Source: a virus. From it: 64,000 bases of DNA. The translations under genes were made by a program, and so were the position numbers. The stretch is from positions 74,545 through 138,544 of IMG/VR virus record IMGVR_UViG_3300045988_134731. The stretch is one strand, 5' to 3'. Under the pieces are notes generated by a model. That model ran no database searches and was not told the origin of the DNA. It saw only the letters and a program-made list of their open reading frames with translations. Shown here one piece after another: positions 1 through 64,000 of the stretch (within the stretch, counting starts at the first letter, position 1; each line of letters starts with the position of its first letter).

Positions 1-93
1 TTGTTCATTTGCGAATATAGATATAAAATAGTTATCTTCAACTAATTTTAAATTTAGTTCTTTTTTCAGATATTCTATTTCTTTAATCATAAT

Positions 94-564
94 TTAACAC
101 CACACCCTATGTTTCTCATGTATTTCTTCTAGCCCATCATAATCACTTATCTCCCATTCAACATCTTCTGGTATTTCTACTATTTTTAATGAGGCACAAC
201 GACCACTAGCTTTTTTACTTCCCATTTCTTCAAACAATTTTATTAAGTCTTTGTCATCTCTATCATATAATTCATCACTTAGAAATGTACAATTCATTAA
301 CTCCTCGGGATTTTTACCTTGATATTCATATGTAACATAAATCATGTTCCAACTAGGTCTTTGATTTTCTACAATTAAATCTCCATTTTCTTTAAATTTA
401 AAATCTCGTATGAATTCAAAAGTATCATTGTAATCTTCGTCATACCCTCCACTATAGAAATATAATTTGTCGCATTCTCTATTTTTTATTTTACATAATT
501 TTATTTTAAATTCATCTGATAGGGTATACCCTCCGAAGCATCTATTTATTAATATTTTTCTCAT
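94..564 (-). CDS. hypothetical protein
   Basis: 156-aa ORF with an AGGAGG RBS upstream of the ATG. TTGACA (607-612) and the intergenic box (619-633) lie upstream. Confidence 0.6.
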   Translation of the reverse strand: MRKILINRCFGGYTLSDEFKIKLCKIKNRECDKLYFYSGGYDEDYNDTFEFIRDFKFKENGDLIVENQRPSWNMIYVTYEYQGKNPEELMNCTFLSDELYDRDDKDLIKLFEEMGSKKASGRCASLKIVEIPEDVEWEISDYDGLEEIHEKHRVWC

Positions 565-621
565 AATTATTCCTCCTTATATATTGCACTATAGTTTTAT
601 TCCTATTGTCAATATTTTTTA

Positions 622-1116
622 TTAATTATTTTTAAGAAGGTTGACTTCTTCTTTTTCATAATATTTACAATCAGCACAACATGGAGACTCGCAACTTAAT
701 AAGCTATTTAGTTCAGAAAGTTCAGATGGGTCTAATGTCTCTTTTCCATGAAGTTCACATTTATGAATTGTAAATTCAACTGAAGGTGTATTACTTTGTT
801 GTAAAACACATATTCTTAAAAGAGTATATACATCTATTATACCTTCATTACCTTCTTGAGTAATTGCTTGTATAATCTTATTTTTGTAATAATACAGTAT
901 TGATATGTTATAATTTCCATCTAACTTAGCTAATAATGTAAAATGTTTAGCATCTCCTATATTCGTATCTATATATTCATATAATTTTTTAGATGTTAAT
1001 TTCAAAGTCACCTCTAATACATCAAGTCCTTTTAATTTTTCAACTTTTTCCTTTACTTCCTCCATTATCAACTCCTCTAGCTTTTCGCCAAATATTTCGT
1101 TTTTACTTTTATTCAT
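622..1116 (-). CDS. hypothetical protein (Cys-rich C-terminus)
   Basis: 164-aa ORF with a GGAGG RBS. It ends ...KNN, with the stop inside the intergenic box. Confidence 0.6.
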   Translation of the reverse strand: MNKSKNEIFGEKLEELIMEEVKEKVEKLKGLDVLEVTLKLTSKKLYEYIDTNIGDAKHFTLLAKLDGNYNISILYYYKNKIIQAITQEGNEGIIDVYTLLRICVLQQSNTPSVEFTIHKCELHGKETLDPSELSELNSLLSCESPCCADCKYYEKEEVNLLKNN

Positions 1117-1140
1117 ATTACCAACCTCCTTATATTAATA

Positions 1141-1168
1141 ATTATATCATATATGAAATAAAAGTCAA
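1141..1168 (-). promoter_or_regulatory. sigma-A-type promoter (TTGACT-N16-TGaTATAAT)
   Basis: The reverse complement reads TTGACT (1163-1168), a 16-nt spacer and TATAAT (1141-1146) with an extended-10 TG. It lies directly downstream of the box at 1174-1187. Confidence 0.6.
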
Positions 1169-1176
1169 TACTTTTA

Positions 1177-1554
1177 TTAATTATTTTCATATATATTACC
1201 AATTACTTTATTTTCAACTTTACCAAATTTAGGTATAAGTCTGTAAAAACTATCTTTTTCGTCTTGAATATACCAACAACCTTTAATCATAACTACTCTG
1301 CCCACAATATGATTTAAAGCTCTAGTTGTTTCTACTATATCGTCTTCATATATTTCTGTGCCGTTTATATCGTTTATTTCTGTATACTGTCCTACATAAC
1401 TAACACTGTCCCAATTACATACATCATTTTGGTCTGATTTATTTTTTTCATTCGGCATAAAACAATATACGCTTTTGCCATATGGTATTATAGAAATTTG
1501 CGAATCATATAACCATTCAACTCCATTATGACCTCTAAACTTAATTTTTCTCAT
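1177..1554 (-). CDS. YopX-like phage protein
   Basis: N-terminal KFRGH..., GQYTEINDINGTEIYEDDIV and C-terminal VIGNIYEN match the YopX family pattern (KFRaW / TGlkDknGkeIyEGDiv / IGNihe). Confidence 0.6.
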   Translation of the reverse strand: MRKIKFRGHNGVEWLYDSQISIIPYGKSVYCFMPNEKNKSDQNDVCNWDSVSYVGQYTEINDINGTEIYEDDIVETTRALNHIVGRVVMIKGCWYIQDEKDSFYRLIPKFGKVENKVIGNIYENN

Positions 1555-1579
1555 AATTTTCCATCTCCTTATATTAATA

Positions 1580-1608: not shown

Positions 1609-1647
1609 TACTTTTTATTAATTATTTTTATTAATTTTTTTAATCCT

Positions 1648-2520
1648 TTAATTTTCTTCTATATCTATTCCAGTTATTGTTTTAAATATATCTTTATCAA
1701 AGTTAGGTAATGAAACAAATGTCAATCTTTCTTTATCGTCTATACGATTCCACATATTTCTCCATGCTTCTGTATATCTTAATTCTTTTAAATAACCTCC
1801 AGTAGCTTCATAATTGGGATGTTTTTCTTTTTCTTCATCTGTCATATTGTATTCATTAACCCATAGAGTTAATTTAAAATAATTATCTATTATTTTAAAT
1901 GCATGACTATTCTTCCATATGTCTAATGTCCAATCACTTTCTTTATTAAATAGTTTAATCGTTTCATGTTTATCATTATCGTCAGTGCAAAAGCATCCTA
2001 ATTTTTTATTGCCTAAATTACAGTCTCCAATGTTATAATTACCTTTATTATAATTACCACTATTGCAATGACCAGAATTATAATTACCACTATTCCAATT
2101 TCCAGTATTCCAATCTCCAGTATTCCAATCTCCAGTATTATAATCTCCAGTATTATAATCTCCAGTATTAGAATTTCCAGTATTATAACTACCTGTGTTT
2201 TTAATACCTGTGTTACCTTCACCAGTATTAACCATATCTAATACTTCATGCCAGTTTAATTCTCTTATTATTTTTATTTCATTTGTTACACATTTATTAT
2301 TTGAATAATTACTTTCTATAACTTCACCAGTAGCTTCTATTATAGCTACTTTGTTTTCTGGGTCAAAAGTGTAATAATTAAAACAATCAACTAGCTTTTT
2401 ACAAAAATGAAATCCTGTTTCACATATACTTATTTCTCCTTCATATTTATATGTTTCTCCTACTTTATATTGAAAACCTCTGCAAGTCCAATCTGAATTA
2501 AATACTTTATATCCTTTCAT
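1648..2520 (-). CDS. repeat protein with an N[TS]G[DN][YW] pentapeptide array
   Basis: 290-aa ORF. The N-terminal module KVFNSDWTCRGFQYKVGETY...GFHFC is followed by about 13 tandem 5-aa units (NTGDYNTGDWNTGNWNSGNYN...). Confidence 0.65.
   Translation of the reverse strand: MKGYKVFNSDWTCRGFQYKVGETYKYEGEISICETGFHFCKKLVDCFNYYTFDPENKVAIIEATGEVIESNYSNNKCVTNEIKIIRELNWHEVLDMVNTGEGNTGIKNTGSYNTGNSNTGDYNTGDYNTGDWNTGDWNTGNWNSGNYNSGHCNSGNYNKGNYNIGDCNLGNKKLGCFCTDDNDKHETIKLFNKESDWTLDIWKNSHAFKIIDNYFKLTLWVNEYNMTDEEKEKHPNYEATGGYLKELRYTEAWRNMWNRIDDKERLTFVSLPNFDKDIFKTITGIDIEEN
2025..2228 (-). repeat. 15-nt tandem coding repeat (pentapeptide array)
   Basis: Units such as aatctccagtattcc and aatctccagtattat are repeated head to tail about 13 times inside the CDS. 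Confidence 0.8.
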
Positions 2521-2633
2521 ACCTTTTTCTCCTTTCTATTATTAATAATTTTCTTGCTCTATCCATTCTTTTTCTTCTTTATCCCATACCCTAAACTTTA
2601 AGTTTTTCATATTTATCACCACCTTATATTATT

Positions 2634-2665
2634 ATATTAACATAAACTTTATAAAAATTACCTAT
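2634..2665 (-). promoter_or_regulatory. class-2 promoter motif ATAGGTAAT-N14-TGTTAATAT
   Basis: The reverse complement is cATAGGTAATTTTTataaagtttaTGTTAATAt. The distance from ATAGGT to TG is 23 nt, identical in all 9 copies. Confidence 0.5.
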
Positions 2666-2698
2666 GATTATTATTTTATTATTATTTAAATCCTCTTT

Positions 2699-2727
2699 TA
2701 AAAAATTAGAGGGAAATTAATCCCTCT
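2699..2727 (-). terminator. rho-independent terminator
   Basis: Stem AGAGGGA/TCCCTCT (2708-2714 / 2721-2727), followed on the minus strand by AATTTTTT. It lies directly after the ParR-like gene. Confidence 0.6.
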
Positions 2728-2973
2728 TTATAAATTTAAGTCATCCAATGAAAAGTCAAACTCATCTTGTTTCCTTTCTTCTACCTTTATAGTTTCACGT
2801 GAAACACTTTGTTCTACATTCATGCCATTAGCTAAATACGATTGTTCAATCTGCATGTGTAATCGAATTAAATCTTTAATAAATGCTGTTTTTGATGTTT
2901 TACCATTTAAATATTCTATAATATCGCTATCTTTCTCATTGAATGTTAATCTCATTTCTTTTTTAGTAGCCAT
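2728..2973 (-). CDS. ParR-like ribbon-helix-helix centromere-binding protein (putative)
   Basis: 81-aa ORF immediately downstream of the ParM-like gene. The N-terminus KKEMRLTFNEKDSDIIEYLNGKTSKTAFIKDLIRLHM looks like a CopG/RHH fold. Confidence 0.45.
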   Translation of the reverse strand: MATKKEMRLTFNEKDSDIIEYLNGKTSKTAFIKDLIRLHMQIEQSYLANGMNVEQSVSRETIKVEERKQDEFDFSLDDLNL

Positions 2974-2981
2974 AATATCAC

Positions 2982-3896
2982 CTACTTATATAATTTATTA
3001 GCTATATTTAATAAACCTTGTGCTTGTAAAGTTATGTCCTCAGATGATATTGTTTGTTGATATATCTTTTTCATTGTAGGTGATATAATTTTAGCTCCAC
3101 CACCAATAATGAGAATATTTGAATTCTTGATGTTATTTGTTTGCCCTTTTATTTCATTTACTAAATTAACTATAAATTTCTTAACTAACTCTTCTTTGTA
3201 TTTGAAATCACCTACTAATAAAGACTCTTCATTATCAAATATTCTTTTTGTTTGTTCTAATGATAATGATAAATCATATGTTAGGTTAAGATATTCTCTA
3301 CAAGAATTGTATAAATTAAACAATCCTAATCTTATACTAAATCCATCTTTTAATTGCATTTTATTATCGTAGACTGTAATATCACACGTATTCCCACCTA
3401 TATCCACAACCATCGTATCTACATTTTTATTTAATTTATTCATTATACCTTGTATAGATTTGATTGAATAAGACTCTGGAAGTATTGTAACATTCTCAAT
3501 TACTATACTTCTTTTAATCCCATTTATAATTATAGTCTTTTTATTATTCTTTTTAATATAATTTTCCATTTCATCTTTCTTTTTATATTGATTAACAGGA
3601 CAACAAGTTACTAAATTGATATTGTTTTCCGTATCTTTTGTAGCATTTGCTATACAATAATAAAGTAATATTAAATAATTGTCTTTTTTATATTTTAAAA
3701 GTTCATTTTCATACTTTCCTTCACCAATTAAATAACCCTCATCATCTATAGTGAATTTTTGATTTTGTGAAAAGTCATCTAATCCCTTTTCACATTTTTT
3801 AATTCTCGATTCACAAATACAACTCCCATTATTAGATATAGCTATTGACGTTAAATTACCAATGTCTACTCCTATATTGATAATATTTTTACTCAT
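2982..3896 (-). CDS. parM: ParM/StbA-like actin-fold segregation ATPase
   Basis: Actin-fold motifs are present: IGVDIGNLTS (phosphate 1), VVDIGGNTCD (phosphate 2) and IIGGGA (adenosine). The start is set at MSKNIIN because of the GGGGAGG RBS; the ORF track extends to 3989. Confidence 0.7.
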   Translation of the reverse strand: MSKNIINIGVDIGNLTSIAISNNGSCICESRIKKCEKGLDDFSQNQKFTIDDEGYLIGEGKYENELLKYKKDNYLILLYYCIANATKDTENNINLVTCCPVNQYKKKDEMENYIKKNNKKTIIINGIKRSIVIENVTILPESYSIKSIQGIMNKLNKNVDTMVVDIGGNTCDITVYDNKMQLKDGFSIRLGLFNLYNSCREYLNLTYDLSLSLEQTKRIFDNEESLLVGDFKYKEELVKKFIVNLVNEIKGQTNNIKNSNILIIGGGAKIISPTMKKIYQQTISSEDITLQAQGLLNIANKLYK

Positions 3897-4293
3897 AATA
3901 TCATCCTCCCCAAAATATTGATTTATTAATTCCGCTACCCTCATGGTAGTATGATAAAAAATACGATATAAATTGATAATGATTTTCAACTGTTACATTA
4001 CAAATTTTACACCGTATTTCACCTCCTTTACTATAATATATGTTTATTTACAAAAATGTTGACTACTATATACATAAATTTTGTAAAAATATTTATTATA
4101 GCATCTCCTAATTCTCCTTCGGAGGTATCAAATGAGCTAATATATGCCTTTCTAAGAAGTTTGAGTAGTCTTATTGAATAAGAGAGGATGTATAAAATTA
4201 AATCTTCTTAAAATTGAAAAGGCAAATTTTACCATATAGGGTCGAGTTTTTCCGTTTTCATCATACTTAGATTCCACTCAACCCCATATTATT
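3897..4293 (-). other. long untranslated leader, candidate parC centromere or structured RNA
   Basis: About 400 nt without an ORF between the promoter motif and parM. It has three TTACAAAWTT copies (about 4001, 4057 and 4078 inverted), a CTCCttcgGGAG hairpin (about 4121-4132) and a locally GC-richer 160 nt stretch. Confidence 0.35.
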
Positions 4294-4325
4294 ATATTAA
4301 CATAAACATTATAAAAATTATCTAT
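4294..4325 (-). promoter_or_regulatory. class-2 promoter motif (variant ATAGATAAT-N14-TGTTAATAT)
   Basis: The reverse complement is tATAGATAATTTTTataatgtttaTGTTAATAt, with the same 23-nt geometry. Confidence 0.45.
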
Positions 4326-4734
4326 ATTTATTAATTATTTTTTCATAATCAATTTTATATTTTTTGTCTCTTGGATTTCTTAACATTATCCATAACGGAA
4401 TTGAATTTAAAAGGTCAGATGGAAGTTGATATAAAGTTACGTCTATTTCCCATTCTTTAAATTTTTCATAGACATCTAATAAATCAAATTCCAATTCTTT
4501 ATTTCTAAATTTTTGAGTAATTATATTTAATTCCTCTAAATCTAATAATACGTTTGCTTGAGAATGTGCATTACACCAAGCAAAGTTAACCTTTTCTAGA
4601 ACTTCTAAATTCTCTTTTATAACTTTAACATATGATTTGCTTTTATCTGGAAATTCCTTTTGTAAAATGTCAATAAATTCTTCTGACATAAGAATGGACT
4701 CCCTTATCAAAACTGTTACAGTTATATCTTTCAT
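4318..4734 (-). CDS. hypothetical protein
   Basis: 138-aa ORF with an AAAGGAGGAG RBS. Confidence 0.6.
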   Translation of the reverse strand: MKDITVTVLIRESILMSEEFIDILQKEFPDKSKSYVKVIKENLEVLEKVNFAWCNAHSQANVLLDLEELNIITQKFRNKELEFDLLDVYEKFKEWEIDVTLYQLPSDLLNSIPLWIMLRNPRDKKYKIDYEKIINKYR

Positions 4735-5652: not shown

Positions 5653-5668
5653 GTTATCACCACCTTTA

Positions 5669-6157
5669 TTAATTATTATATTCATTCATTACATTATACA
5701 CGATATATCCATCTTTTATACCTGCATAATAGTCGTCCTTATCCATATCACCTATCATTATAGCTACAGATATAGGTTCACCAACTTTTGACGATACACT
5801 ATCACTTATGTTTTTACTTGCATTAGCATATTGTTCAACCAGTCTATTCCAAGATTCTCTATTATGTTCTATGCTATGTTTAAATTCATCTTGAGTATAG
5901 TTAAAAGTCACTAATATATATCCATTATCAACTTTGACATTATATTCAACAGATGCATCAGATTCAACTATAGCAAGTTCAATCATTTCTTCCACATAAT
6001 CTCTTGCATTATACAGTGTATCTTGATTGTCTACTTCTATTTGTTTATCTTGTATAGGTTCTTGATTTGTTTCATTGGTTTTCTCTATATTACTACAACC
6101 TACCATACTTATTGATAATACACCTGTTAATAATAAGGCTTTTATTTTTTTATTCAT
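5669..6157 (-). CDS. lipoprotein (paralog of 21676-22155)
   Basis: Signal peptide plus lipobox: MNKKIKALLLTGVLSISMVGC|SN. It is 162 aa and ends ...NN in the box. Confidence 0.7.
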   Translation of the reverse strand: MNKKIKALLLTGVLSISMVGCSNIEKTNETNQEPIQDKQIEVDNQDTLYNARDYVEEMIELAIVESDASVEYNVKVDNGYILVTFNYTQDEFKHSIEHNRESWNRLVEQYANASKNISDSVSSKVGEPISVAIMIGDMDKDDYYAGIKDGYIVYNVMNEYNN

Positions 6158-6184: not shown

Positions 6185-6964
6185 TTAATCATCAATTTCT
6201 ACTATGTAATCATACAAAGCATCATATAGTTTTTGTGGTATTTTATCCTTATAATAATCAGCTACTTCTTTGATGTTACGTTCTTTATAATACTTATAAA
6301 CTTCAAAAGCTTTCTCTTGAGTTTCATAACACCCTAAGTGTTCATATTTTGATTTTCCAGTTTTTGGATTAATTAAACTGCAATAAGCTCTATATTTACT
6401 ATTTTGAGTAAGGCTTGTTCCAATGACTGACTCTCCTCTATCATTTTGTCTTTTAGTAAATAAACTATTAATTGTTTCTGGTACAAATATACAAGTCTCT
6501 GGTGAATAAACTTTATTTCTTTTAACTAAAATATCTTTATCTAAACACATTCTTTCACCTTCAACTGTATAATAATTTTTATCATACCATTTTCCAAAGT
6601 TTTGAAAGTTATGCCATTCATTACAAACGGTACAACCTTTATATGCAGGATATTTTTCTCGATTTTTTTCATCATAACATCTTTGTAACATACTATGCCA
6701 AGTGGAATAAACTCTAGTAGCCTTACCATTTTCTTTAGTTTTATACTTCCCCTCTCCAATATATCCCACATTTGAACAACGTGGCTCATAAGGACATTTT
6801 ATATTTCCTTTTTTAAAATTATAATACTGTTGATTTTTAATAATCCAATTATATTCTGTAAAAGATATATCTATGTCTTGTGCATTTCTATATCCTACAA
6901 TAATCATTTTACTTCCAAAATTATTCATTCTTCTCTCACCTGTTCTATCTATTTTCATTCTCAC
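6185..6964 (-). CDS. AP2-like DNA-binding, homing-endonuclease-like protein (paralog 1 of 3)
   Basis: 259 aa. It shares IDRTGER..NNFGSKM, YSTWHSMLQRCYD, LDKDILVK.NK.YSPETC.FVP and KY.A......GK...LG.YETQEKAFEVYKYYKE (AP2-like) with 14232-15011 and 24440-25219. Confidence 0.5.
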   Translation of the reverse strand: MRMKIDRTGERRMNNFGSKMIIVGYRNAQDIDISFTEYNWIIKNQQYYNFKKGNIKCPYEPRCSNVGYIGEGKYKTKENGKATRVYSTWHSMLQRCYDEKNREKYPAYKGCTVCNEWHNFQNFGKWYDKNYYTVEGERMCLDKDILVKRNKVYSPETCIFVPETINSLFTKRQNDRGESVIGTSLTQNSKYRAYCSLINPKTGKSKYEHLGCYETQEKAFEVYKYYKERNIKEVADYYKDKIPQKLYDALYDYIVEIDD

Positions 6965-7165: not shown

Positions 7166-7209
7166 ATCTTATTCCTCCTTGTATTATATCTCTCATTTAT
7201 TAATTATTT

Positions 7210-8168: not shown

Positions 8169-8196
8169 ATTTCATCTCTCCTTTTATTAATTATTT

Positions 8197-8393: not shown

Positions 8394-8421
8394 ATTATAA
8401 TACTTTTATTTATATTGTCAA
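8394..8421 (-). promoter_or_regulatory. sigma-A-type promoter (TTGACA-N16-TATAAT)
   Basis: The reverse complement has TTGACA at 8416-8421 and TATAAT at 8394-8399. The box lies immediately upstream (about 8425-8440). Confidence 0.6.
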
Positions 8422-8454
8422 TGCTTTATTAATTATTTTTACTTCAATGTCTTA

Positions 8455-9156
8455 TTAATAATTTATTGCATTTTCTTTATTTATAAAGAAATGTATTCCA
8501 GTACTACATTCATTCCATCTATTATTATCAAAATTATCCACATGTACTATTTCTCCAACTCTATATATAAAATTACTATCATGGTTACTATTTATCTTAG
8601 TTATTTTCTCTTCTGTTTCAATATTTTCTATATCTAATACTTTAGCTTTGTTACATCTACATTTTGAAGTAGTTGCACTACTTCTTTTAGCATCTTCTAA
8701 TATCAATAACTTAACTATACATCCATTAGCTTTCTTATATCCTATAAAACTCCCTTCTTCTGGACAAGCTAAATTATAACCAATAGTATGAATATTTGTT
8801 TTTATATCTTTTAAATTAGCATTACTTAAATCAGCATTGCTTAAATTAGCATTACTTAAATTACTATTACTTAAATTAGAATAACTTAAATCAGCATGAC
8901 TTAAATTGGTATATCTTAAATCAGTATATCTTAAATCTACACATCTTAAATTGGTATATCTTAAATCAGTATTGCTTAAATCAGTATTGCTTAAATTAGC
9001 ATATTTTAAATCAGCATATTTTAAATTAACATATTCTAAATCAGCATTTTCTAAATTGGCACATCTTAAATTAGCACGTTTTCCTCCTTTTCCTTTTACC
9101 CACAATTCATGCTCCTTTAATATTTTATTTAATTCCTCTTGATTTATATTTCTCAT
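8455..9156 (-). CDS. pentapeptide-repeat protein with a C-terminal phage-type globular domain
   Basis: About 20 canonical A(D/N)LxX units (ANLENADLEYVNLKYADLKYANLSNTDLSNTDLRYTNL...) are followed by GYKKANGCIVKLLI...RWNECSTGIHFF. Confidence 0.8.
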   Translation of the reverse strand: MRNINQEELNKILKEHELWVKGKGGKRANLRCANLENADLEYVNLKYADLKYANLSNTDLSNTDLRYTNLRCVDLRYTDLRYTNLSHADLSYSNLSNSNLSNANLSNADLSNANLKDIKTNIHTIGYNLACPEEGSFIGYKKANGCIVKLLILEDAKRSSATTSKCRCNKAKVLDIENIETEEKITKINSNHDSNFIYRVGEIVHVDNFDNNRWNECSTGIHFFINKENAINY

Positions 9157-9216
9157 AATATCAACTCCTTATACATATAATTATATCACTTTTTATATAA
9201 AAATCAATACCTTTTA

Positions 9217-10217: not shown

Positions 10218-10233
10218 AATATCATCCCCTTTA

Positions 10234-10794: not shown

Positions 10795-10883
10795 ATTTAT
10801 TCCCTCCTTTATTTATCTTATATATATTATAACACATTCTCATTAGAAGTCAACACCTCTAATGAGAATTTTATTAATTATTT

Positions 10884-12182: not shown

Positions 12183-12243
12183 AATTACATTCCTTCCTTT
12201 TTATTAATTATTTAGTTTTCAATATTATTCGTCAATAAGTTTA

Positions 12244-12855: not shown

Positions 12856-12919
12856 ATTTTTTCCTCCTTATACTTATAATTATATAACCTTTTATATCAT
12901 TTGTCAATAAGTTTATTAA

Positions 12920-15595: not shown

Positions 15596-15609
15596 GAAAC
15601 TTTTATTAA

Positions 15610-54862: not shown

Positions 54863-54896
54863 GAATAAAATAATTAATAAAATGGAGGTTAAAAGA

Positions 54897-55741
54897 ATGA
54901 TAGATAACGATGTTAGACAAATGGTAATAGACTTACATAACGGTGTGTGTTCTTATTCAAGAAAAGAAGCTTCAGATGTTATAAGAAATATGATATTTGA
55001 AAAAGTAGAACCACTTCCAGAAAAAAAATCTAATTATAGAAGATGGTTAAAAAGAAATGGTAATACAGTATTTGAATTATTAGAAGAATTAATAACTGTA
55101 ACTCATAACGAAATAACTGTTGAATCTTTTGGGGATTTAGTAGATGTTGACACTTTTGATATAGGAGATAAAAAAGAATTTTTAATTCAAAATGACGAAT
55201 TGTTCAAAGTTGCTATAATGGCTACTGGTGTCAAAACAGTTCATAGACAAAGAATCTATGATAAAAAGGTAGATACTAAAGCTTTCAGATTAGGCGTTAA
55301 AATCTATGCTGAAATGTTTGATTTCTTAAAAGGAAATATAGACTGGACTTTATTTGTAGATAGAGTATCTAAATCTTTTGATAAAAAAGTATGTACTTTA
55401 GTTACAAAAACTATATTTGGAGCTTATGATGCTTCTGGAAATCCAAATTTATGTAAAGCATCTAATGACGGTGCTTTATCAACTACTTTAAAAGAAATGA
55501 TAGCTAAAGTTGCAGATTCTACAGGTCAAGAAGTTCAAATACTAGGAACTAAAACTGCATTAGCTCATGTAAAATCAGATGCGACTTTTGTATCAGATGC
55601 TGAAAAAGACGATAGAAGAAATTATGGATATACTCAAGTATTTGAAGGTACTCCTTTAGTTCCATTACCAAATTATTATGATAAAACTACTGGTGCTTTT
55701 GAAGTTGATGACGATATGTTATTAATAGTTCCGGTTAACGT
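54897..55741 (+). CDS. putative major capsid protein, exon 1
   Basis: The start is set at MIDNDV after the TGGAGGT RBS. The frame ends ...LLIVPVNVE-TAA, but a matching C-terminal frame resumes at about 57302. The boundary is uncertain by about 6 nt. Confidence 0.55.
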
Positions 55742-55994
55742 AGAATAAATACTACAACAGCCCGTATATCGAGCAATCGGTATAGGACACAACTTGAATT
55801 GCAGGTAATGGGTAAAGCTCTACACCAAAGCGGATAGTGAAAACTAAGACGTAACGGTACGAAAGTAGAAAAAACGTAGAGATGGTGCATGGTTAAATCC
55901 TAAACACTAGATGATTAAATTCATTACAATCCCTGTTCATGCAGGTAAGCGTCCCTGTTTTAATATTAATTATTTTGTTTAAAAGGTTAAAATA

Positions 55995-56026
55995 ATAGGT
56001 AATTTTATCAATAGTTATGTTAATAC
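55995..56026 (+). promoter_or_regulatory. class-2 promoter motif inside the intron, upstream of the endonuclease ORF
   Basis: aATAGGTAATTTTAtcaatagttaTGTTAATAC, followed by the GAAGGAGGTGG RBS and the ATG at 56050. Confidence 0.5.
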
Positions 56027-56049
56027 AATAATATGAAGGAGGTGGTAAT

Positions 56050-57156
56050 ATGCCAAAGAAATTAACTTATGAGGAAGTTAAAGAATATATTGAATCGCAA
56101 GGTTATAAATTGATATCTAAAGAATACATAAAAAGCGATGTTAAACTTGAAATGATATGTCCTAATGGTCATCAATGTTATATATCATGGGATAATTTTA
56201 AATACGGAAGAAGATGTAAAGAATGTAAATATGAAAAACTTTCTAAAGAGTATAAATTTTCTTATGATTATGTAAATAATTATGTCCAATCGCTTGGATT
56301 TGAATTGTTATCTGATAAATATGAAAATAATCAAACCCTTTTAAAAATAAAATGTGATAAAGGACATGAATTTGAACGACAATTTAATAATTTAAAACAT
56401 AACCATGAATGTCCTGTTTGCAAAGAAAATAAAAATAAGAAAAAGAAAAGTGAAGAAATGATAAAAGAAATACAAGAATATTTAAATAAATTTGGTTACA
56501 AATTGATATCAACTGAATATGTAAATCATGGTGAAAAATTAGATATGATTTGTAATGAAGGACATAAATGTTCTATCTCATGGGGAAATTTTAAGTCTGG
56601 AAGAAGATGTAAAGTTTGTAATGATATAGAAAAATCCAAAAGAAATCGTAAAGATTATAATGAAGTTAAATCTTATATAGAATCTTTCGGTTATGAATTG
56701 ATAAGTAAAGAATATTTTAATCAAGATGGTTTACTTACTATTAAGTGTCCCGAAAATCACGTTTTTAAAATGACGTATAAAATGTTTAAGCGTGGTAGCA
56801 GATGCCCAATATGTAATAAGTCAAAGGGAGAAAAAAGGATAAGTGATTATTTGGATGAAAAACATATTAAATATGAATATAATAAAGGTTATTTTGATGA
56901 TTTGATTGGGTATAGTGGAAGATTGTTAAGACCAGACTTTATTTTACCAGACTGTAAAATTTGGATAGAATATGATGGAGAGTTTCATTATAATAAAATT
57001 TATGAGAATGATAGTTATGATATAATGAAAATACATGATAAAATCAAAGATACATATGCAAAGGAACATGATTGGAAATTAATAAGAATCCCATATTGGG
57101 AATTTGATAATATAGAAACCATTTTAAACAAAGAATTAAAAATAATTAATAAATAG
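56050..57156 (+). CDS. intron-encoded homing-endonuclease-like protein (paralog 3)
   Basis: Three repeated modules (YKLISKEYIKSDVKLEMICPNGHQCYISWDNFKYGRRCKEC...) precede the same nuclease end: RPDFILP...WIEYDGEFH...IHDKIKDTYAKEHDWKLIRIPY. Confidence 0.65.
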   Translation: MPKKLTYEEVKEYIESQGYKLISKEYIKSDVKLEMICPNGHQCYISWDNFKYGRRCKECKYEKLSKEYKFSYDYVNNYVQSLGFELLSDKYENNQTLLKIKCDKGHEFERQFNNLKHNHECPVCKENKNKKKKSEEMIKEIQEYLNKFGYKLISTEYVNHGEKLDMICNEGHKCSISWGNFKSGRRCKVCNDIEKSKRNRKDYNEVKSYIESFGYELISKEYFNQDGLLTIKCPENHVFKMTYKMFKRGSRCPICNKSKGEKRISDYLDEKHIKYEYNKGYFDDLIGYSGRLLRPDFILPDCKIWIEYDGEFHYNKIYENDSYDIMKIHDKIKDTYAKEHDWKLIRIPYWEFDNIETILNKELKIINK

Positions 57157-57301
57157 AACGAGATGAAACTTCAACGACTATTCCGAGAGGAAGTACACTC
57201 AAGCGAGTGGAAGTGGGTTGCCCCTATATTTATAGGGTGAAGAAATAGTCTATTCTTTAGTGAAAGCTAAAGCAGTTCATAAGAGAACGGTATAAAAATA
57301 G

Positions 57302-57485
57302 CGAATTTATACGAATAAAAAGTGGAGAATCACTTGTAAAACTTGGATATGAAGGTGATGTTGAATTGTACGAAGATACAGAAGGAGATAGACAAGACTA
57401 TCAAATAGAAATGGAAATGAATCGTATGTTACACTTAGGAGTTGCTATAGCTTCTACATACGCAATGATAAAAATAACTGCATAA
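57302..57485 (+). CDS. putative major capsid protein, exon 2
   Basis: The frame is open from 57264 without a start codon and encodes ...EFIRIKSGESLVKLGYEGDVELYEDTEGDRQDYQIEMEMNRMLHLGVAIASTYAMIKITA. A hairpin follows at 57507-57530. Confidence 0.5.
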
Positions 57486-60091: not shown

Positions 60092-60821
60092 ATTCACTAA
60101 AGAATTATTATCTGGTAAAGATATTGATTTAAAAGAATTTAATTTGGGCATTATTAAACAACCCAAGGTTCAAACCTTTATAGAGGTGGTAGATAGTATA
60201 GAATTTATAAAACCTTTTTATATGGTTCGATATTGGAATAATAATGGTGCTTTTGAAGAAGTGGAAATGCCTTTTAATATATATTATACCTTATCTCAAA
60301 AGAATAAATCTTTATTAGTAGATTTAATATTATATCTTATGATTTTATATGATACGAAAGATATAAAATTAAAAAATTGTGGAGATAAAGGATATAGTAT
60401 ATTTATTAAATCTCAAGATAATATTGAATCTTTTATAGACGATAGTAATTTTAATATATTGTCTAAAATTGTTTTAGAAATAATGTATTATGATGAACCT
60501 AAAAAAGAAATCAAGCAAAAGATTGAAGGTTCGGCTGAAGATATAGCATTATTTGAAAAGTATGAAAAAGAATACAAAGAAAAACAAATAAAAAGAAATG
60601 CTATATATTTTGAAGAAATAGTAAGACAAGTAATACATACGAGAAAAACTACGTATGAAGAAATAAAAAAATGGACTGCTTGGCAATTACAAGACACTTA
60701 TAAATCAATGAAAGCAATGGAAGATTGCGAATTGGCTTGGAAACTTGCTATTGCAGGAGCATATAAAGGTAAAGAAATTCCTCCTTGGTATATGGGTACA
60801 AGACTAATGAGGGATGAATAA
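60081..60821 (+). CDS. hypothetical structural protein
   Basis: 246-aa ORF that overlaps the upstream gene by 11 nt. Confidence 0.6.
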   Translation: MKCKFTKELLSGKDIDLKEFNLGIIKQPKVQTFIEVVDSIEFIKPFYMVRYWNNNGAFEEVEMPFNIYYTLSQKNKSLLVDLILYLMILYDTKDIKLKNCGDKGYSIFIKSQDNIESFIDDSNFNILSKIVLEIMYYDEPKKEIKQKIEGSAEDIALFEKYEKEYKEKQIKRNAIYFEEIVRQVIHTRKTTYEEIKKWTAWQLQDTYKSMKAMEDCELAWKLAIAGAYKGKEIPPWYMGTRLMRDE

Positions 60822-60849
60822 ATAATTAATAAAATGGAGGTAATGTGAA

Positions 60850-61359: not shown

Positions 61360-61382
61360 AAATAATTAATAAATTTTAACTT

Positions 61383-61412
61383 ATGGGGGCAGAAATGTCC
61401 CCATATTTTTTT
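61383..61412 (+). terminator. rho-independent terminator
   Basis: Stem ATGGGGGC/GTCCCCAT (61383-61390 / 61397-61404), followed by ATTTTTTT. Confidence 0.7.
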
Positions 61413-61517
61413 ATATACTTTTGTAAGAGTATTTGGATTAATGGTTTTACGAAAGTATATAAATTATATGGGGGCAATAAACACCTCCAATAAAATATAC
61501 AAAAGGAGGATAATTAA

Positions 61518-62933
61518 ATGGGCGATAAAGTGAAAGTCAGAGAAGGGAATGATGGTTACTCTTATCCATACACTTCCCCAGATTTAGTTATAGATAAAAA
61601 CGGAAAATCAAATACAAAGAAATTTAAAGAAATTGATTCGCAATTTAAAGATATTGCGAATAAAAAAATATATATAACTCCAGAAGATTTTGGTGCAAAA
61701 GGTGATGGAATAACAGATGATACAGTAGCATTACAAAATGCTATCAATGAAGCTCAGTCCCAAAATATACCAATAAGAAGTAAGCATAAAACTTATTTAA
61801 TTTCAGCTTCTATTACTATAACAAATAAAATTGATTTAGATTTTTCTAATTCAATTTTAACCTCTAACACTAATATAAATAACATTATAGATGTAGCATC
61901 AGGGCAAAATCATTATAGTCAAATAAAAAACCTAACAATAGACTGTAATAATATAGAAAATTTAAACGGATTTAATATTAGTCATGCCGAAAAATTAGAA
62001 ATAAATCATTTGATAGTAAAAAATTGTACTAAATCATGTTATAAAATAGATAGTGGATATGAAGTTTTTATGTCTAATTCCCATTTGAATGGTGTTGGAG
62101 AAAATTCTATAGGATTAAATATAAATACAAGTGATTGCAATTATACAGATATCATATTAATAGATTGTTTTACAGGTATATTTTCTAACAATACAAATAA
62201 TTATTATACTAGAATACATGGATGGATAAAGGAGAATACACTGTTAAATTCAACTTTTATAAATATAAACAATGGGAATATATTTATAAAAGATTGTTAT
62301 TCGGATACTTATTATAAAACTATGTATGTAAACAACCCCGCAAATATAGTGATTAATGGTCTAAATGTATATTATTTTGATTCAGACAAAGTTAATAATG
62401 AATACAAAATAAATAACCCATATGTTTTTTATTTTAATGAAACCACTTGTAATTCCTCCAATAGTGAATTTATAACATTAAATAATTCGATTATAAAGGG
62501 GTCAGATAATTTTAATCTTAATTTATCCAATTTGGACGAATTAAGATGTAAAGGTTTTTATAACAATATATATGCAAAATGTAAGAACATAAAATTTTAT
62601 AAAAAAGGAAATTTATCTATAGATGATATTTCTAATATAAAAGCACTTGATGAAAAAATTATTAATATGGATAATAAAATTAAAATTAATATAGTATTAC
62701 AAATTACATTGGATAATATAATTCATGACCAAAATATTACATTAGGAGTTTTACCTAGTGGATTTAGACCAATTGAAAGTATATATACCTATGCTATTTT
62801 AAGTAAGAATAGATATAAATTTACTGAAGCATATCCATTATATGTTTATATAAGTTCTTCTGGAAGTATACTTGTAAATATTCCTTCTAATATTACTGGT
62901 ACAGGATATGTATTCTTAGATTTTTCTTTTTAG
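61518..62933 (+). CDS. tail spike or depolymerase with a pectate-lyase-3-type beta-helix domain
   Basis: ITPEDFGAKGDGITDDTVALQNAINEA is the canonical N-terminal cap of Pectate_lyase_3 / rhamnogalacturonase-like beta-helices. The rest is Asn-rich and repetitive. Confidence 0.65.
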   Translation: MGDKVKVREGNDGYSYPYTSPDLVIDKNGKSNTKKFKEIDSQFKDIANKKIYITPEDFGAKGDGITDDTVALQNAINEAQSQNIPIRSKHKTYLISASITITNKIDLDFSNSILTSNTNINNIIDVASGQNHYSQIKNLTIDCNNIENLNGFNISHAEKLEINHLIVKNCTKSCYKIDSGYEVFMSNSHLNGVGENSIGLNINTSDCNYTDIILIDCFTGIFSNNTNNYYTRIHGWIKENTLLNSTFININNGNIFIKDCYSDTYYKTMYVNNPANIVINGLNVYYFDSDKVNNEYKINNPYVFYFNETTCNSSNSEFITLNNSIIKGSDNFNLNLSNLDELRCKGFYNNIYAKCKNIKFYKKGNLSIDDISNIKALDEKIINMDNKIKINIVLQITLDNIIHDQNITLGVLPSGFRPIESIYTYAILSKNRYKFTEAYPLYVYISSSGSILVNIPSNITGTGYVFLDFSF

Positions 62934-62980
62934 TACGCAATTTAAAAATATTGTGTACTTAGTATCGAAATGAAATTGTA

Positions 62981-63010
62981 AGAGTGGTGTTAATTTACCA
63001 CTCTTTTTAT
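62981..63010 (+). terminator. rho-independent terminator
   Basis: Stem AGAGTGGT/ACCACTCT (62981-62988 / 62997-63004), followed by TTTTAT. Confidence 0.65.
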
Positions 63011-63038
63011 ATAAAAATTAATAAAGGAGGATGATTAA

Positions 63039-64000
63039 ATGATTAATATAGATAAAGATTATTTAATTACCGTAGATTTAAAAAATACAAAAGTTAAATC
63101 CGACAAAACTATATTTTTCTATAACACAGATTTAAATATTTGTAATATTTTTATAAAATTAATTTGTACTGATGAAGATAAAACCATACCAGATGATTTA
63201 ATCGTTGAATTTGCAGTATTAAAACCAGAAACAGATGAATTTAAACCTTTAGACGCAACATTAATATCTAAAGAAGATTTATTGTATCAAGTTGATTTAA
63301 CTACAGATTATTTTGATATAGTTGGTAAATATTCATGTGAAATAAGAGTTTCGGGAACAATAGAAAATGAATTAAAATGTTTTACATCTGAAGAATTTGA
63401 TTATGTAGTTAAACCTAATATAACTGCTAAATTAAATAAAAAAATAAAAAATGATAAAAATCTTCCTATATTAGAAAAATTAATAAAAGATGTTAAAGAA
63501 ATAACCGACGGAATAAATACAAATGAAATTCAGATGAAACGAGATGAAAATTTAGTTGGTGATAACAAAACTATAGTAGGTGCGATAAATCAGTTAAGAG
63601 AAGATGTTAATTCTGGAATCGGTGGAGGAACTGTAGAATTAAAAGATTATCAAAAGAAAAATGATGAATTTTTAAATACCGATGAAAAAACAATTACTGG
63701 TGGGATAAATGAAGTAAATAATAAAATAAAGAAAGTACAAGAAAGTCAAATTGAACTTGATAAAGACGATGTTTCATTTAATGGTGTAGATGATATTTCA
63801 CATGATGAATTAAATACTACAAATAAAACTATAATTGGTGCTATAAATGAAGTTGATTCGCAATTTAAAGATATTGCGAACAACCAACCAACTGATTTGT
63901 CATTAGATAGTGCTACTAATTTACTTCAACTTGTAAATTCAAAGGGTAGTAAATTAGGCAACGGAATAACACTTCCTATATCAAGTGGTGGGGGTACAAG
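63039..64000 (+). CDS. tail fibre or baseplate protein (BppU-N-like N-terminus, KTIxGAINE repeats), 3' partial
   Basis: The ATG at 63039 follows an AAAGGAGGA RBS and the frame stays open to the window end. Repeats: NKTIVGAINQL, EKTITGGINEV, NKTIIGAINEV. It is absent from the ORF track because it has no stop in the window. Confidence 0.6.
   Translation, partial: MINIDKDYLITVDLKNTKVKSDKTIFFYNTDLNICNIFIKLICTDEDKTIPDDLIVEFAVLKPETDEFKPLDATLISKEDLLYQVDLTTDYFDIVGKYSCEIRVSGTIENELKCFTSEEFDYVVKPNITAKLNKKIKNDKNLPILEKLIKDVKEITDGINTNEIQMKRDENLVGDNKTIVGAINQLREDVNSGIGGGTVELKDYQKKNDEFLNTDEKTITGGINEVNNKIKKVQESQIELDKDDVSFNGVDDISHDELNTTNKTIIGAINEVDSQFKDIANNQPTDLSLDSATNLLQLVNSKGSKLGNGITLPISSGGGT

Follow-up and report, generated by a model that had tools for sequence, protein, structure and literature searches.

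About half of the gene junctions of this phage genome carry a near-invariant, strand-oriented A/T box of 14-17 nt, which is probably the many-copy operator (core A-AATAATTAATAA-A) of a 290-aa homologue of SroF and MrpR (YopR), that is, a site of the SPBRE/SroF type expanded into a stoperator-like network. In the window, the whole 64,000-nucleotide stretch analyzed here, AATAATTAATAA occurs in 59 exact copies, compared with 0.90 ± 0.97 expected from dinucleotide shuffles (shuffle maximum 4). The 45 minus-strand copies all fall within 619-31030, where the genes run leftward, and the 14 plus-strand copies all fall within 37729-61372, where the genes run rightward; none of the 59 exact copies in the window opposes the local gene polarity, and the one-mismatch copies in the window are 23 co-oriented and 1 anti-oriented. 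The oriented, near-invariant box of the original prediction is therefore real, and all the coordinates quoted for it check out. The box is, however, longer than the 12-15 nt proposed, with the extended consensus t(-4) A A A AATAATTAATAA A(+12), and its presence at nearly every junction was overstated: it is widespread in both arms, but perfect copies are found at 47 of the 87 gene junctions of the window, or about half (35 of 52 in the left arm, with one-mismatch copies at 4 more, and 12 of 35 in the right arm, with one-mismatch copies at 2 more). Two copies are intragenic, one at 11236-11247 (minus strand), which reads KIINK, is not conserved in orthologues and is probably incidental, and the other at 43837-43848 (plus strand), in the exonuclease gene. 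The genome that carries the box is phage-plasmid-like, with a size of ~135 kb.

The box is under purifying selection. In 94 alignments of orthologous junctions from related phages, conservation is 98% for the 14-mer and 79-81% for the flanks. Sought in related genomes, the box was found at the loci of nine related contigs in 169 co-oriented copies and a single anti-oriented one, which lies inside a coding sequence. Given its count, polarity and conservation, and the failure of the intragenic copy to be kept, the box has the hallmarks of a sequence-specific site maintained by selection.

The surroundings of the box vary. In 30 cases, the box overlaps or abuts the stop of a called gene; it supplies TAA in two of the three frames, and 13 genes end in AAT AAT TAA (Asn-Asn), where at least 11 such proteins were originally counted. 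A -35 element (TTGAC/TTGAT) lies 4-7 nt downstream of 12 boxes, which are there in the position of an UP element, and 15-19 nt downstream of 7 boxes. A GGAGG-type RBS begins 0-8 nt past ~25 boxes, and this adjacency, originally attributed to the right arm, is seen in the left arm as well.

Among the left-arm copies, all on the minus strand, a stop codon is overlapped and a -35 element closely follows at 619-630 (Asn-Asn end; TTGACA 6 nt downstream), 1174-1185 (Asn-Asn; TTGACT, 5 nt), 9214-9225 (sigma-like gene 9217-9789; TTGATT, 6 nt), 12241-12252 (TTGACG, 5 nt), 12913-12924 (TTGACA, 5 nt, 12/12 promoter), 22497-22508 and 23567-23578 (both TTGACA, 5 nt). Short spacing is also found at 1615-1626 and 14211-14222 (both TTGACA, 6 nt), 8426-8437 (TTGACA, 4 nt, 12/12 consensus promoter), 15413-15424 (TTGATA, 5 nt; intact in 14 of 14 orthologous alignments) and 27293-27304 (TTGTAA, 7 nt; 3' of a hairpin+AGCTC module), and with the minus-strand one-mismatch boxes AAAAATTAATAA (17724-17735; followed after 6 nt by the MrpR-like gene promoter TTGTCA-17-TATAAT), AACAATTAATAA (25289-25300; 8 nt upstream of TTGACA) and AATTATTAATAA (20727-20738; followed after 5 nt by the tyrosine recombinase gene promoter, with TTGACA). 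Longer distances separate the box from the -35 element at 10871-10882 (after a stop; TTGACT, 17 nt), 26663-26674 (TTGACA, 17 nt), 31019-31030, the innermost copy of the arm (TTGACA, 17 nt), and, 3' of hairpin+AGCTC modules, 26290-26301 (TTGACG, 15 nt), 27691-27702 (TTGACA, 16 nt, 12/12 promoter) and 28891-28902 (TTGAAT, 16 nt), as well as in a tandem trio whose members are separated by hairpins (28465-28476, after a stop and with a hairpin downstream; 28401-28412; and 28354-28365, with TTGATA 19 nt downstream).

Other left-arm copies precede an RBS, either overlapping a stop, at 5666-5677 (RBS 1 nt downstream), 10231-10242 (sigma-like gene 10234-10794; 1 nt), 18080-18091 (immediately downstream) and 30870-30881 (3 nt), or abutting it, at 15027-15038 (1 nt), or after it, at 7197-7208 (TAA at -4; ~15 nt), 8184-8195 (1 nt), 13529-13540 (~12 nt) and 24427-24438 (1 nt); the copy at 21455-21466 adjoins the RBS of the AntA/KilAC antirepressor gene on its upstream side, and that at 23142-23153 lies 3' of a hairpin+AGCTC module, 8 nt before an RBS. 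Gaps between promoter and RBS hold boxes at 12201-12212 (its AATAAT 17 nt past TTGACG), 19684-19695 (helicase gene, 12/12 promoter 19760-19733), 26596-26607 (promoter 26645-26616), 28823-28834 (28874-28846), 29383-29394 (29439-29410) and 29955-29966 (30022-29993). Terminator hairpins follow 15603-15614, which overlaps a stop (hairpin 15595-15575), and 20796-20807 (20789-20768); 17871-17882 overlaps a stop (Asn-Asn) ~60 nt before a terminator, and 17780-17791 is flanked by a terminator (17832-17814) on one side and by the MrpR-like gene's promoter region on the other. A P2-type promoter-like motif comes next after 4328-4339, at the 3' end of ORF 4318-4734, and 16661-16672 is in a leader, 3' of such a motif.

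In the right arm, where all copies are on the plus strand, a stop is overlapped at 37729-37740, the first of the arm (RBS 1 nt downstream), 41153-41164 (RBS of the large sigma gene, 4 nt), 42797-42808 (stop of the HU-like gene; RBS 2 nt), 43097-43108 (Asn-Asn; RBS 2 nt), 45595-45606 (stop of a homing-endonuclease-like gene; RBS 1 nt) and 50936-50947 (RBS of an endonuclease-like gene, 6 nt), and is abutted at 40393-40404 (RBS of the N6/N4 methyltransferase gene immediately downstream) and 60821-60832 (RBS 3 nt). The box at 38072-38083 precedes an RBS by 3 nt, that at 54869-54880 adjoins the RBS of major capsid gene exon 1 on the upstream side, that at 39679-39690 is followed by a hairpin (ctcccctt...aagggga), and that at 61361-61372 comes after a stop, with a terminator hairpin downstream. 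One more (57141-57152) lies at the 3' end of an endonuclease ORF, within an insertion of 1.6 kb by which the capsid gene is split. In the window as a whole, boxes also bracket promoters. The position of the box relative to transcription starts is thus variable (upstream of the -35 element, in promoter-RBS gaps, before terminators and in terminator-promoter gaps), and therefore, an operator or a roadblock fits these contexts, whereas a promoter does not.

The proposed master repressor is the product of a minus-strand gene at 16784-17656. The top PDB matches of this 290-aa protein in sequence search are SroF/YopR/MrpR, its family profile matches 9rd5_H (‘Phi3T SroF bound to DNA') with E = 6e-6, and its homologues carry the Pfam domain MrpR_C_cat. 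With the AlphaFold2 model (pLDDT 90.6) as the Foldseek query, the best seven matches are all YopR/MrpR/SroF (E 1.7e-8 to 2.7e-7), compared with only about 3e-4 for Cre, IntI and Xer; the predicted fold fits the integrase-like repressors far better than true recombinases, the similarity to the former being moderate (TM 0.52-0.59, 14-16% identity). Among 20 homologues, no invariant Arg or His was found in the catalytic-domain half.

MrpR maintains lysogeny and recognizes the 15-bp SPBRE, which is located in intergenic promoter regions (PMC10516654). The SroF monomer binds an asymmetric, A/T-rich box of 26 bp at sites genome-wide, reading the A-tracts AAAAATAAAA of this box (bioRxiv 10.1101/2025.11.27.690993). 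In our scan, the phi3T box core has 32 copies with at most one mismatch, of which 31 follow the direction of the genes, with a switch of orientation at the divergent point; the 50-100 kb stretch of phi3T contains 21 copies compared with 0.75 expected. Several phi3T copies directly abut TTGAC or GGAGG, as the window boxes do, and TAAAAATAA is common to both boxes. Two points count against the parallel: the conserved window box (14-17 nt, all A/T) is shorter than the 24 bp that SroF reads, and the window contains about one site per kb, late structural gene junctions included, far more than the 10 peaks reported from ChAP-seq of SPbeta. If these sites are operators, their density is several times that known for the integrase-like repressors recently reported from the Bacillus phages SPbeta and phi3T.

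Lineages in which the MrpR-like protein is 59% and 50% identical have the same box core, whereas those at 37% and 41% have different oriented junction boxes related to the window box; in the sister lineage L133, the box AATAAATATAAAATTAATAAA is identical to the phi3T consensus in 17 of 20 positions when the consensus strings are aligned. The parallel divergence of protein and box is as expected of a repressor and an operator that co-evolve, but the variation of the box among lineages follows the overall phylogeny and is thus not tied specifically to the MrpR-like protein. A natural control is phiCD211, with the same architecture, 26% GC and 132 kb, where the MrpR-like homologue is present (HMM E = 3e-39) but the commonest oriented 12-mer has only 10 copies; thus, the protein alone does not predict box expansion.

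From the directly observed statistics, polarity and purifying selection of the box and the contexts of its phi3T counterpart, together with the protein fold, we infer that the box is bound by the 290-aa protein and that this results in repression. On the model of phi3T SroF, each asymmetric A/T-rich box would be clamped by a single repressor monomer, which would be bound for as long as the genome persists as a plasmid-like prophage. At ~19 strong sigmaA-type early promoters, it would occupy the DNA just 5' of the -35 element and hinder initiation, and at promoter-RBS or intergenic boxes, it would form a polar roadblock, in the manner of mycobacteriophage stoperators. Because it consists of A/T only and carries TAA in two frames, the box would fit a compact genome only at gene ends, and because it can be packed only there, it would double as a stop codon, hence the Asn-Asn tails, and adjoin the RBS. 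A plasmid prophage would be expected to keep its Rep3/FtsK/origin and ParM/ParR genes active. The distribution of the box is consistent with repression in that it is absent from 31031-37728, the Rep3/FtsK/origin region (31.0-37.7 kb), and from 1626 to 4328, which covers the ParM/ParR genes and their surroundings, there is no perfect copy, only a one-mismatch copy at 2539.

Readings of the box as a promoter element, RNA signal, HU site or recombination joint are weaker. The originally suggested UP element or translation enhancer combined with a frame-independent stop is partly supported by the TAA stops and the 12 promoters with a suitably placed box, but leaves unexplained both the near-invariance (98% vs 80% conservation) and the boxes before terminators or in terminator-promoter gaps. 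The general idea of a site for a phage or nucleoid protein fared best, but not with the HU-like protein as the ligand: its gene (42496-42801) and the adjacent large sigma gene are shared with the boxless phiCD211. The SroF/MrpR-like protein is the better candidate because its studied relatives bind asymmetric, A/T-rich, multi-copy boxes and the phi3T contexts are alike. Homology breakpoints do cluster near boxes, as a recombination joint for cassette shuffling would predict, but 87% of them are in gene junctions with or without a box, at 8.5 vs 8.3 breakpoints per junction, so that the box itself has no demonstrated part in recombination. The probable direction of replication, outward from the central origin, also matches the polarity of the box, which may have a replication-linked role in place of, or beside, one in transcription.

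Several neighboring genes bear on the proposed repressor switch. A tyrosine recombinase (Phage_integrase) is encoded at 19768-20655 (minus strand), and in relatives, the equivalent gene is directly upstream of the MrpR-like gene, resembling yopP near yopR. The window yielded no LexA (Cheo) box, a point against the proposed switch; the AntA/KilAC antirepressor-family gene (20855-21439, minus strand) encodes a possible inducer of the switch. Together, the antirepressor, Rep3, ParM and tyrosine recombinase genes suggest a temperate, plasmid-borne lifestyle.

The box, the oriented A/T motif at the gene junctions of the window, is real and strongly selected. Its core, the 12-mer AATAATTAATAA, is present in 59 copies in the 64 kb, compared with 0.90 +/- 0.97 expected from dinucleotide-preserving shuffles, and its polarity is always that of the genes: all 45 minus-strand copies are located between 619 and 31030, in the region of leftward ORFs (the left arm), and all 14 plus-strand copies between 37729 and 61372, in the region of rightward ORFs (the right arm). 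The point where the polarity of the boxes switches coincides with a flip in the GC and AT skews. Of the boxes with one mismatch, 23 are co-oriented with the genes and only one is not. Alignment of the 59 sites yields the consensus t-AAA-AATAATTAATAA-A, with zero information beyond positions -4 to +12, and inspection of the sequence reveals no overall dyad symmetry, only the 6-nt palindromes TAATTA and ATTAAT. The box coordinates and the sub-claims of the original prediction hold on recount. The statement that nearly every junction carries a box was, however, too strong: many junctions do, but a perfect box is found at 35 of the 52 junctions in the left arm and at 12 of the 35 in the right arm, and there is none in the central 6.7 kb.

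Related genomes contain the box as well. In loci from nine related contigs, 169 boxes are co-oriented with the genes, and the single anti-oriented one is a chance copy within a coding sequence. In 94 alignments of orthologous junctions with at most 96% identity, box positions -1 to +12 are 98% conserved, compared with 79-81% in the flanks; the copy at 11236, which lies within a gene, lacks conservation in the orthologues. The original prediction held that AT-richness was insufficient as an explanation, and phiCD211, a large C. difficile phage that serves as a natural box-free control, bears this out: despite the matching architecture and base composition, its commonest 12-mer has only 10 copies, so that AT-richness is not the cause of the box. 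The polarity of transcription is inseparable from that of replication, given that neither the window nor the examined loci contain a gene inverted within its arm, and the polarity of the box also matches the likely direction of replication outward from a central origin. A literature search with the box sequence retrieved only unrelated papers, and megablast produced no match among plasmids and only trivial matches among phages. In these genomes, the box is a reliable annotation marker of gene ends and gene polarity.

The window appears to come from a temperate phage-plasmid whose host is a low-GC Firmicute. The GC content of the window is 25%, and its centre encompasses a Rep3 initiator, an FtsK-like protein, three perfect DnaA boxes and iteron-like repeats. 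Each DnaA box (TTATCCACA on the opposite strand) is contained in one of three copies of ACTTGTGGATAACT in the ORF-poor, box-free centre, and three iteron-like repeats, CCCTTAAAAACACATATT, adjoin the Rep3 gene; these DnaA-box and iteron-like repeat regions (32349-32548 and 36643-36789) are probably the plasmid origin region. The left arm encodes a ParM-type actin and a tyrosine recombinase, together with an AntA/KilAC antirepressor, two DNA methyltransferases, a helicase and two small sigma factors. In the right arm, genes for a large sigma factor and an HU-like protein are accompanied by those for an exonuclease and for the terminase, portal, protease and capsid; this arm shares synteny with phiCD211 (132 kb), at a portal identity around 30%. 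Related contigs of 113-141 kb, 70-97% identical to the window, are found in IMG/VR and in metagenomes; scans of genome contigs, one using the helicase protein and one using a 24-mer, detected no cultured genome matching the window. No match at the gathering threshold of Rfam and no tRNAs were found in the window.

The boxes adjoin signals of several kinds. Called stop codons are overlapped or abutted by 30 of them, and 13 genes terminate with AAT-AAT-TAA, in agreement with the earlier claim that at least 11 proteins owe their Asn-Asn ends to the box. A -35 element, TTGAC or TTGAT, lies 4-7 nt downstream of 12 boxes and 15-19 nt downstream of 7 more, and a GGAGG-type RBS begins within 0-8 nt of ~25 boxes. 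Boxes are seen between a stop codon and an RBS or a sigmaA promoter, between a stop codon and a terminator (15603 and 61361), between a terminator and a promoter (17780, intact in 9 of 11 orthologous alignments), between a promoter and an RBS (12201, 19684, 26596, 28823, 29383 and 29955) and between two hairpins (28465, 28401 and 28354). Terminators or hairpins follow at least six boxes, some boxes are in tandem, sigmaA promoters are flanked by boxes on either side, and one box (57141) sits in a 1.6-kb insertion that splits the capsid gene. Nearly all strong sigmaA-type promoters of the left arm have a box immediately upstream or within the leader.

The left arm contains ~20 such near-consensus promoters (TTGACA-17-TATAAT; for example, 8394-8421, 12879-12907, 19733-19760, 26616-26645 and 27645-27674), an individual promoter for almost each small early gene, and many of these share a conserved leader, TATAAGTATAAGGAGG. 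Another recurrent module, on the minus strand at ~23150-30000, is placed between the upstream gene and the box and consists of a GC-rich hairpin followed by (T)AGCTC and, often, by ATGATAGTAAA; it is found upstream of the boxes at 23142, 26290, 27293, 27691, 28354, 28401, 28891 and 29955. Several of these hairpins are followed by T-runs on the opposite strand (for example, 27315-27336 and 26326-26345), so that they may terminate antisense transcription.

The candidate binder of the box is the 290-aa product of 16784-17656 (minus strand), hereafter the MrpR-like protein. It matches an 'integrase' PHROG but not the Pfam Phage_integrase family, which does match a recombinase encoded in the adjacent region (19768-20655). 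The best PDB sequence matches are SroF of phage phi3T and YopR (MrpR) of SPbeta, integrase-fold master repressors of Bacillus phages, and a profile constructed from 20 homologues matches 9rd5_H with E = 6e-6. For the AlphaFold2 model (pLDDT 90.6), Foldseek ranks YopR, MrpR and SroF structures in the first seven places, among them 'Phi3T SroF bound to DNA' (E-values of 1.7e-8 to 2.7e-7, TM-scores of 0.52-0.59), whereas the true recombinases Cre, IntI and Xer are matched at about 3e-4. The protein thus has the integrase-like CB + CAT fold of the SroF/MrpR repressors, and the Pfam family MrpR_C_cat (PF22823) is present in its homologues. A Pfam scan of the protein itself gave no match, and an older Pfam copy matched 3 of the 20 family members, weakly; the assignment is based on the PDB profile search, the fold search and precomputed PF22823 hits. 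Among the 20 homologues, no invariant or nearly invariant Arg or His is found in residues ~100-290, the half that contains the catalytic domain, a loss of catalytic residues that is read from alignment columns rather than from residue-by-residue mapping onto the structure. In phiCD211, a homologue is encoded at ~114136-115062 (minus strand; HMM E = 3e-39) and annotated 'hypothetical protein'; this phage thus has an MrpR-like gene while lacking a high-copy box.

MrpR maintains the lysogeny of SPbeta by binding a 15-bp operator, SPBRE, at intergenic promoter regions (PMC10516654). SroF is described in a preprint as a monomeric clamp on an asymmetric, A/T-rich 26-bp box in which A-tracts are read, with sites distributed across the phi3T genome (bioRxiv 10.1101/2025.11.27.690993). 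A scan of phi3T (KY030782) with the SroF box core AATAAAAATAAAAT, allowing up to one mismatch, identified 32 copies, and the 50-100 kb stretch contains 21 of these, compared with 0.75 expected. All but one of the 32 share the local gene polarity, which flips at the divergent point at 54.1 kb (for example, minus-strand copies at 53840-54132 and plus-strand copies at 55852-125086), and several directly abut a TTGAC -35 element or GGAGG, as in the window. The scan suggests ~31 sense-oriented sites, roughly threefold the number of ChAP-seq peaks (10) that SPbeta is reported to have.

The system of the window resembles that of SroF and MrpR in many respects. The protein has these repressors as its closest structures; the SroF operator, bound by a monomer, is likewise asymmetric and A/T-rich, with A-tracts; many intergenic copies are spread over a genome of roughly 130 kb; copies are sense-oriented and multiply represented near early promoters, where 19 copies in the window are 4-19 nt upstream of a -35 element. 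A tyrosine recombinase gene adjoins the repressor gene: in phi3T, the order is yopP-yopQ-yopR, in four related loci (L133-L136), a Phage_integrase gene is immediately upstream of the MrpR_C_cat gene, in the related locus L131, it is several kb upstream and, in the window, about 2 kb away. YopX and HU-like genes are shared with phi3T. The two boxes have TAAAAATAA in common, but both are low-complexity A/T sequences, so that similarity of the sequences alone is weak evidence. There are also differences. The density of the boxes is higher in the window, ~1.4 per kb in the early arm and 0.9 per kb overall, compared with ~0.25 per kb in phi3T and with the 10 peaks known from SPbeta. In the window, even the late structural operon contains boxes, whereas the late genes of phi3T have none except for a doubtful copy at 35614. 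Conservation spans 14-17 nt, purely A/T, compared with 24-26 bp including G/C positions in the SroF box, and the boxes in the window routinely provide the stop codon. The genome is plasmid-prophage-like (Rep3, ParM) rather than an integrated prophage, the protein identity to SroF and MrpR is only 14-16%, and there is no LexA box: in the 64 kb of the ~135-kb genome, GAAC-N4-GTTC with at most one mismatch has 4 hits compared with 9.9 expected, and all four are remote from the MrpR-like gene. The window has, instead, a gene of the AntA/KilAC antirepressor family.

Sister lineages provide variants of both the protein and the box. The locus L131, with an MrpR-like protein 59% identical to that of the window, has the same box in 25 copies in 20.9 kb, and L134 (50%) has the same core in 13 copies. 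With greater divergence of the protein, the box is different, TAAGTAYAAAATAAATAAA in L135 (Logan contig SRR33465459_22138; 41%) and AATAAATATAAAATTAATAAA in L133 (Logan contig ERR14656847_559; 37%), and a further relative, L116 (IMGVR_UViG_3300045988_149468), has ATATAGAAATTAATAA. The boxes of L131, L133, L134 and L135 are all co-oriented with the genes, and those of L133 and L135 are found at junctions, adjoining a -35 element or an RBS. In an alignment of consensus strings made here, the L133 box is identical to the phi3T consensus at 17 of 20 positions, although these, too, are low-complexity A/T strings. At the sequence level, variation of the box alongside divergence of the MrpR-like protein appears as a pattern of repressor-operator co-evolution, yet it tracks the overall phylogeny as well. 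The boxes of L133, L135 and L116 may represent different immunity types, and the variants form a ready series for the study of the change of DNA specificity in a clamp monomer and the origin of immunity groups.

By analogy with SroF and MrpR, the box is, on balance, probably an operator of the SPBRE/SroF type that is recognized by the integrase-fold repressor encoded at 16784-17656. Several other roles have to be weighed against this one. The box could be a '-10-only' promoter, similar to the T4 late promoters, for RNA polymerase with a phage sigma factor, giving nearly each gene its own start. Three sigma-like proteins are encoded (9217-9789, 10234-10794 and 41181-42359), one of the small ones is weakly similar to a 'late sigma transcription factor' PHROG, and the genes for the two small sigmas have no homologue in the box-free phiCD211; the box includes AATAAT (5 of the 6 positions of TATAAT), is strictly co-oriented and ends with a conserved A that could be the start site, and at 12201, AATAAT is located 17 nt after TTGACG. 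The geometry speaks against such a promoter: at the ~25 sites where the SD is 0-8 nt past the box, a start 6-8 nt after the -10 would remove or truncate the RBS, leaving no room for a start site and leader, boxes precede terminators or hairpins in at least six cases, occur in tandem and stand on both sides of sigmaA promoters, and there is no conserved second (-35) element although the small sigmas possess region 4. Furthermore, a separate bipartite motif, ATAGGTAAT-N14-TGTTAATA (P2), is a better candidate for a phage-sigma promoter, and the related phi3T box, which has the same kinds of neighbours, was defined by experiment as a repressor operator; a promoter role of the box is thus improbable. 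The large sigma factor is rejected as the binder because it is common to the box-free phiCD211. The perfect sense-strand polarity is also what an element acting in mRNA would be expected to show, either an AU-rich processing site for an endoribonuclease or a binding site, just before the SD, of a translational regulator or enhancer, and the intercistronic location fits, with ~25 boxes directly before an SD and 30 overlapping or following stop codons. AU-rich leaders enhance translation, and RegA and RegB of T4 act on intercistronic sites. Mere AU-richness, however, does not require an invariant 14-mer, and the fixed distance of 4-7 nt between twelve boxes and a -35 element is a relation at the DNA level. 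Little RNA is expected at the box at 17780, between an intrinsic terminator and a promoter, yet this box is preserved in most of the orthologues, and at 57141, inside the capsid-splitting insertion, obligatory RNA cleavage would ruin the precursor and obligatory termination would be harmful. A primary role in RNA is, accordingly, quite improbable.

The binder named in the original prediction, the HU-like protein (42496-42801), is a plausible HU homologue, with a Pfam Bac_DNA_binding score of 21.9 bits against a cut-off of 22.4, membership in a DNA-binding PHROG family and a syntenic counterpart in phiCD211 that is annotated as HU. But the gene is present in phiCD211, which has no box, as well as in phi3T, and thus does not co-vary with the box, and this candidate is rejected; proteins of the HU family, moreover, bind DNA with little sequence specificity. 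A plain UP element for the alpha subunit of RNA polymerase would agree with the location of the box at roughly -57 to -40 of 12 promoters and with its 3' half, which resembles the proximal UP subsite, but such a function cannot account for the boxes beside an RBS or a terminator, nor for the near-invariance. An HU site or UP element as the explanation of the box is barely credible. The original prediction also proposed a recombination joint, that is, identical linkers for cassette shuffling by short-homology recombination or by the adjacent tyrosine recombinase. Gene orders are indeed strongly shuffled among relatives of 70-97% identity, the boxes can bracket any kind of module (gene, promoter, terminator or hairpin), and the proposed binder is of recombinase descent. 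Homology breakpoints are found within 15 nt of a box in 28% of the cases, compared with 3.4% for random positions, and for 25 of the 138 block ends, a box is located no more than 20 nt away in each of the two genomes, as in the cassette 619-1187 of the window, which corresponds to 671-1255 of a related locus, L048. The enrichment vanishes, however, when box-free junctions serve as the control: 87% of the breakpoints fall in gene junctions anyway, with 8.5 per boxed and 8.3 per box-free junction. Where a cassette has been replaced at 17871-18091, the other genome has a box at just one of the two boundaries; dyads or hairpins are absent from the box, unlike those of tyrosine recombinase core sites or attC; the MrpR-like family lacks the invariant catalytic Arg and His; and second-order selection for evolvability poorly accounts for the 98% conservation. 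Recombination as the main function is highly improbable, and an integron attC-like site is rejected for want of a hairpin-forming inverted repeat and of box-specific breakpoints.

If the box is an operator of the MrpR-like repressor, this operator would have multiplied to a density near one per kb, in strict polarity with transcription, and would work like the stoperators of mycobacteriophages; the stop-codon role and, possibly, a role as UP element or AU-rich leader would be by-products of an A/T-only site in a compact genome. The SroF/MrpR type of repressor, known since 2023 and to date only from the SPbeta-like phages of Bacillus, would then reach AT-rich phage-plasmids of ~135 kb, a clade without cultivated members that is related to large C. 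difficile phages, would be capable of running a dense, transcription-polar, stoperator-like network, and would represent convergent evolution of genome-wide silencing by a completely different protein fold. A bolder possibility, rather unlikely as it stands, is that a catalytically dead integrase is a genome-wide polar silencer, with one monomeric clamp shutting almost every gene individually, and that the boxes are, perhaps, also landing pads for a recombinase. Should the density in the window hold over the ~135-kb genome, such a silencer would have more than 100 identical operators, even in late operons and in an intron-like insertion, and would amount to an independent, far denser re-invention of the stoperator principle. 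The landing pads, if real, would permit an integron-like exchange of single-gene cassettes between related phages through the active tyrosine recombinase encoded nearby.

The stoperators of Cluster A mycobacteriophages are >20 asymmetric short sites, found in promoters and in short spaces between genes and oriented along the direction of transcription; the repressor that binds them is a monomer that reads DNA with two of its parts (PMC9283540). The boxes of the window agree with the stoperators in number, asymmetry, location and orientation, with a strict correlation between orientation and transcription in both arms, as in L5, Bxb1 and TipsytheTRex. Variants of the stoperator site define immunity groups, as the variants of the box may do. 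The stoperators differ in being G/C-containing 13-mers in a GC-rich genome, at a lower copy number per kb, and in the repressor, which combines an HTH with a 'stoperator domain' instead of the integrase-like clamp proposed here; nothing similar to this L5 gp71-type architecture (N-terminal HTH plus stoperator domain) was found when the window proteins were scanned with Pfam and PHROG. L5 stoperators have been demonstrated to act as roadblocks, an activity that is proposed for the boxes of the window. In Cluster K mycobacteriophages, the start-associated sequence (SAS) is a conserved, oriented 13-nt motif just upstream of many start codons that includes the SD itself and is tied to the start codons; the box, in contrast, precedes the SD and occurs at promoters and terminators as well. 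The C1 operator of P1, an asymmetric 17-bp site, is present in well over a dozen copies across a plasmid-prophage genome, and a single repressor, with an antirepressor circuit, controls many operons; the repressor fold is different, however, and the P1 sites are far fewer, neither located at each junction nor strictly co-oriented. The promoter/stem-loop cassettes (PeSL) of T4-type phages are repeated promoter-plus-terminator units of about 50 bp beside small early genes in hyperplastic regions, at mosaic boundaries, whereas the box is a 14-mer for which an added recombination role is unsupported in the window.

Several further features of the window are worth mention. Comparison with phiCD211 proteins using tblastn shows that two insertions devoid of ORFs (~47265-47584 and ~47738-48146) divide the large terminase gene (46791-49265) into three coding pieces, and that the major capsid gene (54897-57485) is interrupted by a 1.6-kb insertion containing an endonuclease gene (56050-57156); no group I or group II intron was detected by Rfam in these split genes. 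Free-standing genes resembling homing endonucleases form two families of three paralogues each. Those of one family (6185-6964, 14232-15011 and 24440-25219) encode 259-aa proteins with no Pfam match, and those of the other (44634-45599, 50967-51965 and 56050-57156) encode a DUF4379 treble-clef zinc finger and a RAP-like C-terminus. Such genes are variably present among the related phages (for example, 8486-9332 of the locus L117).

The P2 motif is represented by eight co-oriented copies in the window, starting at 37042, 37473, 39833 and 55995 on the plus strand and at 21573, 16748, 4325 and 2665 on the minus strand. Its fuller form is cATAGGTAAT-N14-TGTTAATA, followed by AATAATATAAGGAGGTG, and its -35 part resembles a sigmaH-type AGGAWWT. 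The motif is present in the three box-bearing relatives that were scanned and absent from phiCD211 and L116, and it may define the promoter class of the two small phage sigmas. At ~21520-21540 (minus strand), a P2-type motif is followed by an RBS and a minimal start-stop ORF (ATG TAA), and then by the box at 21455 and the antirepressor gene.
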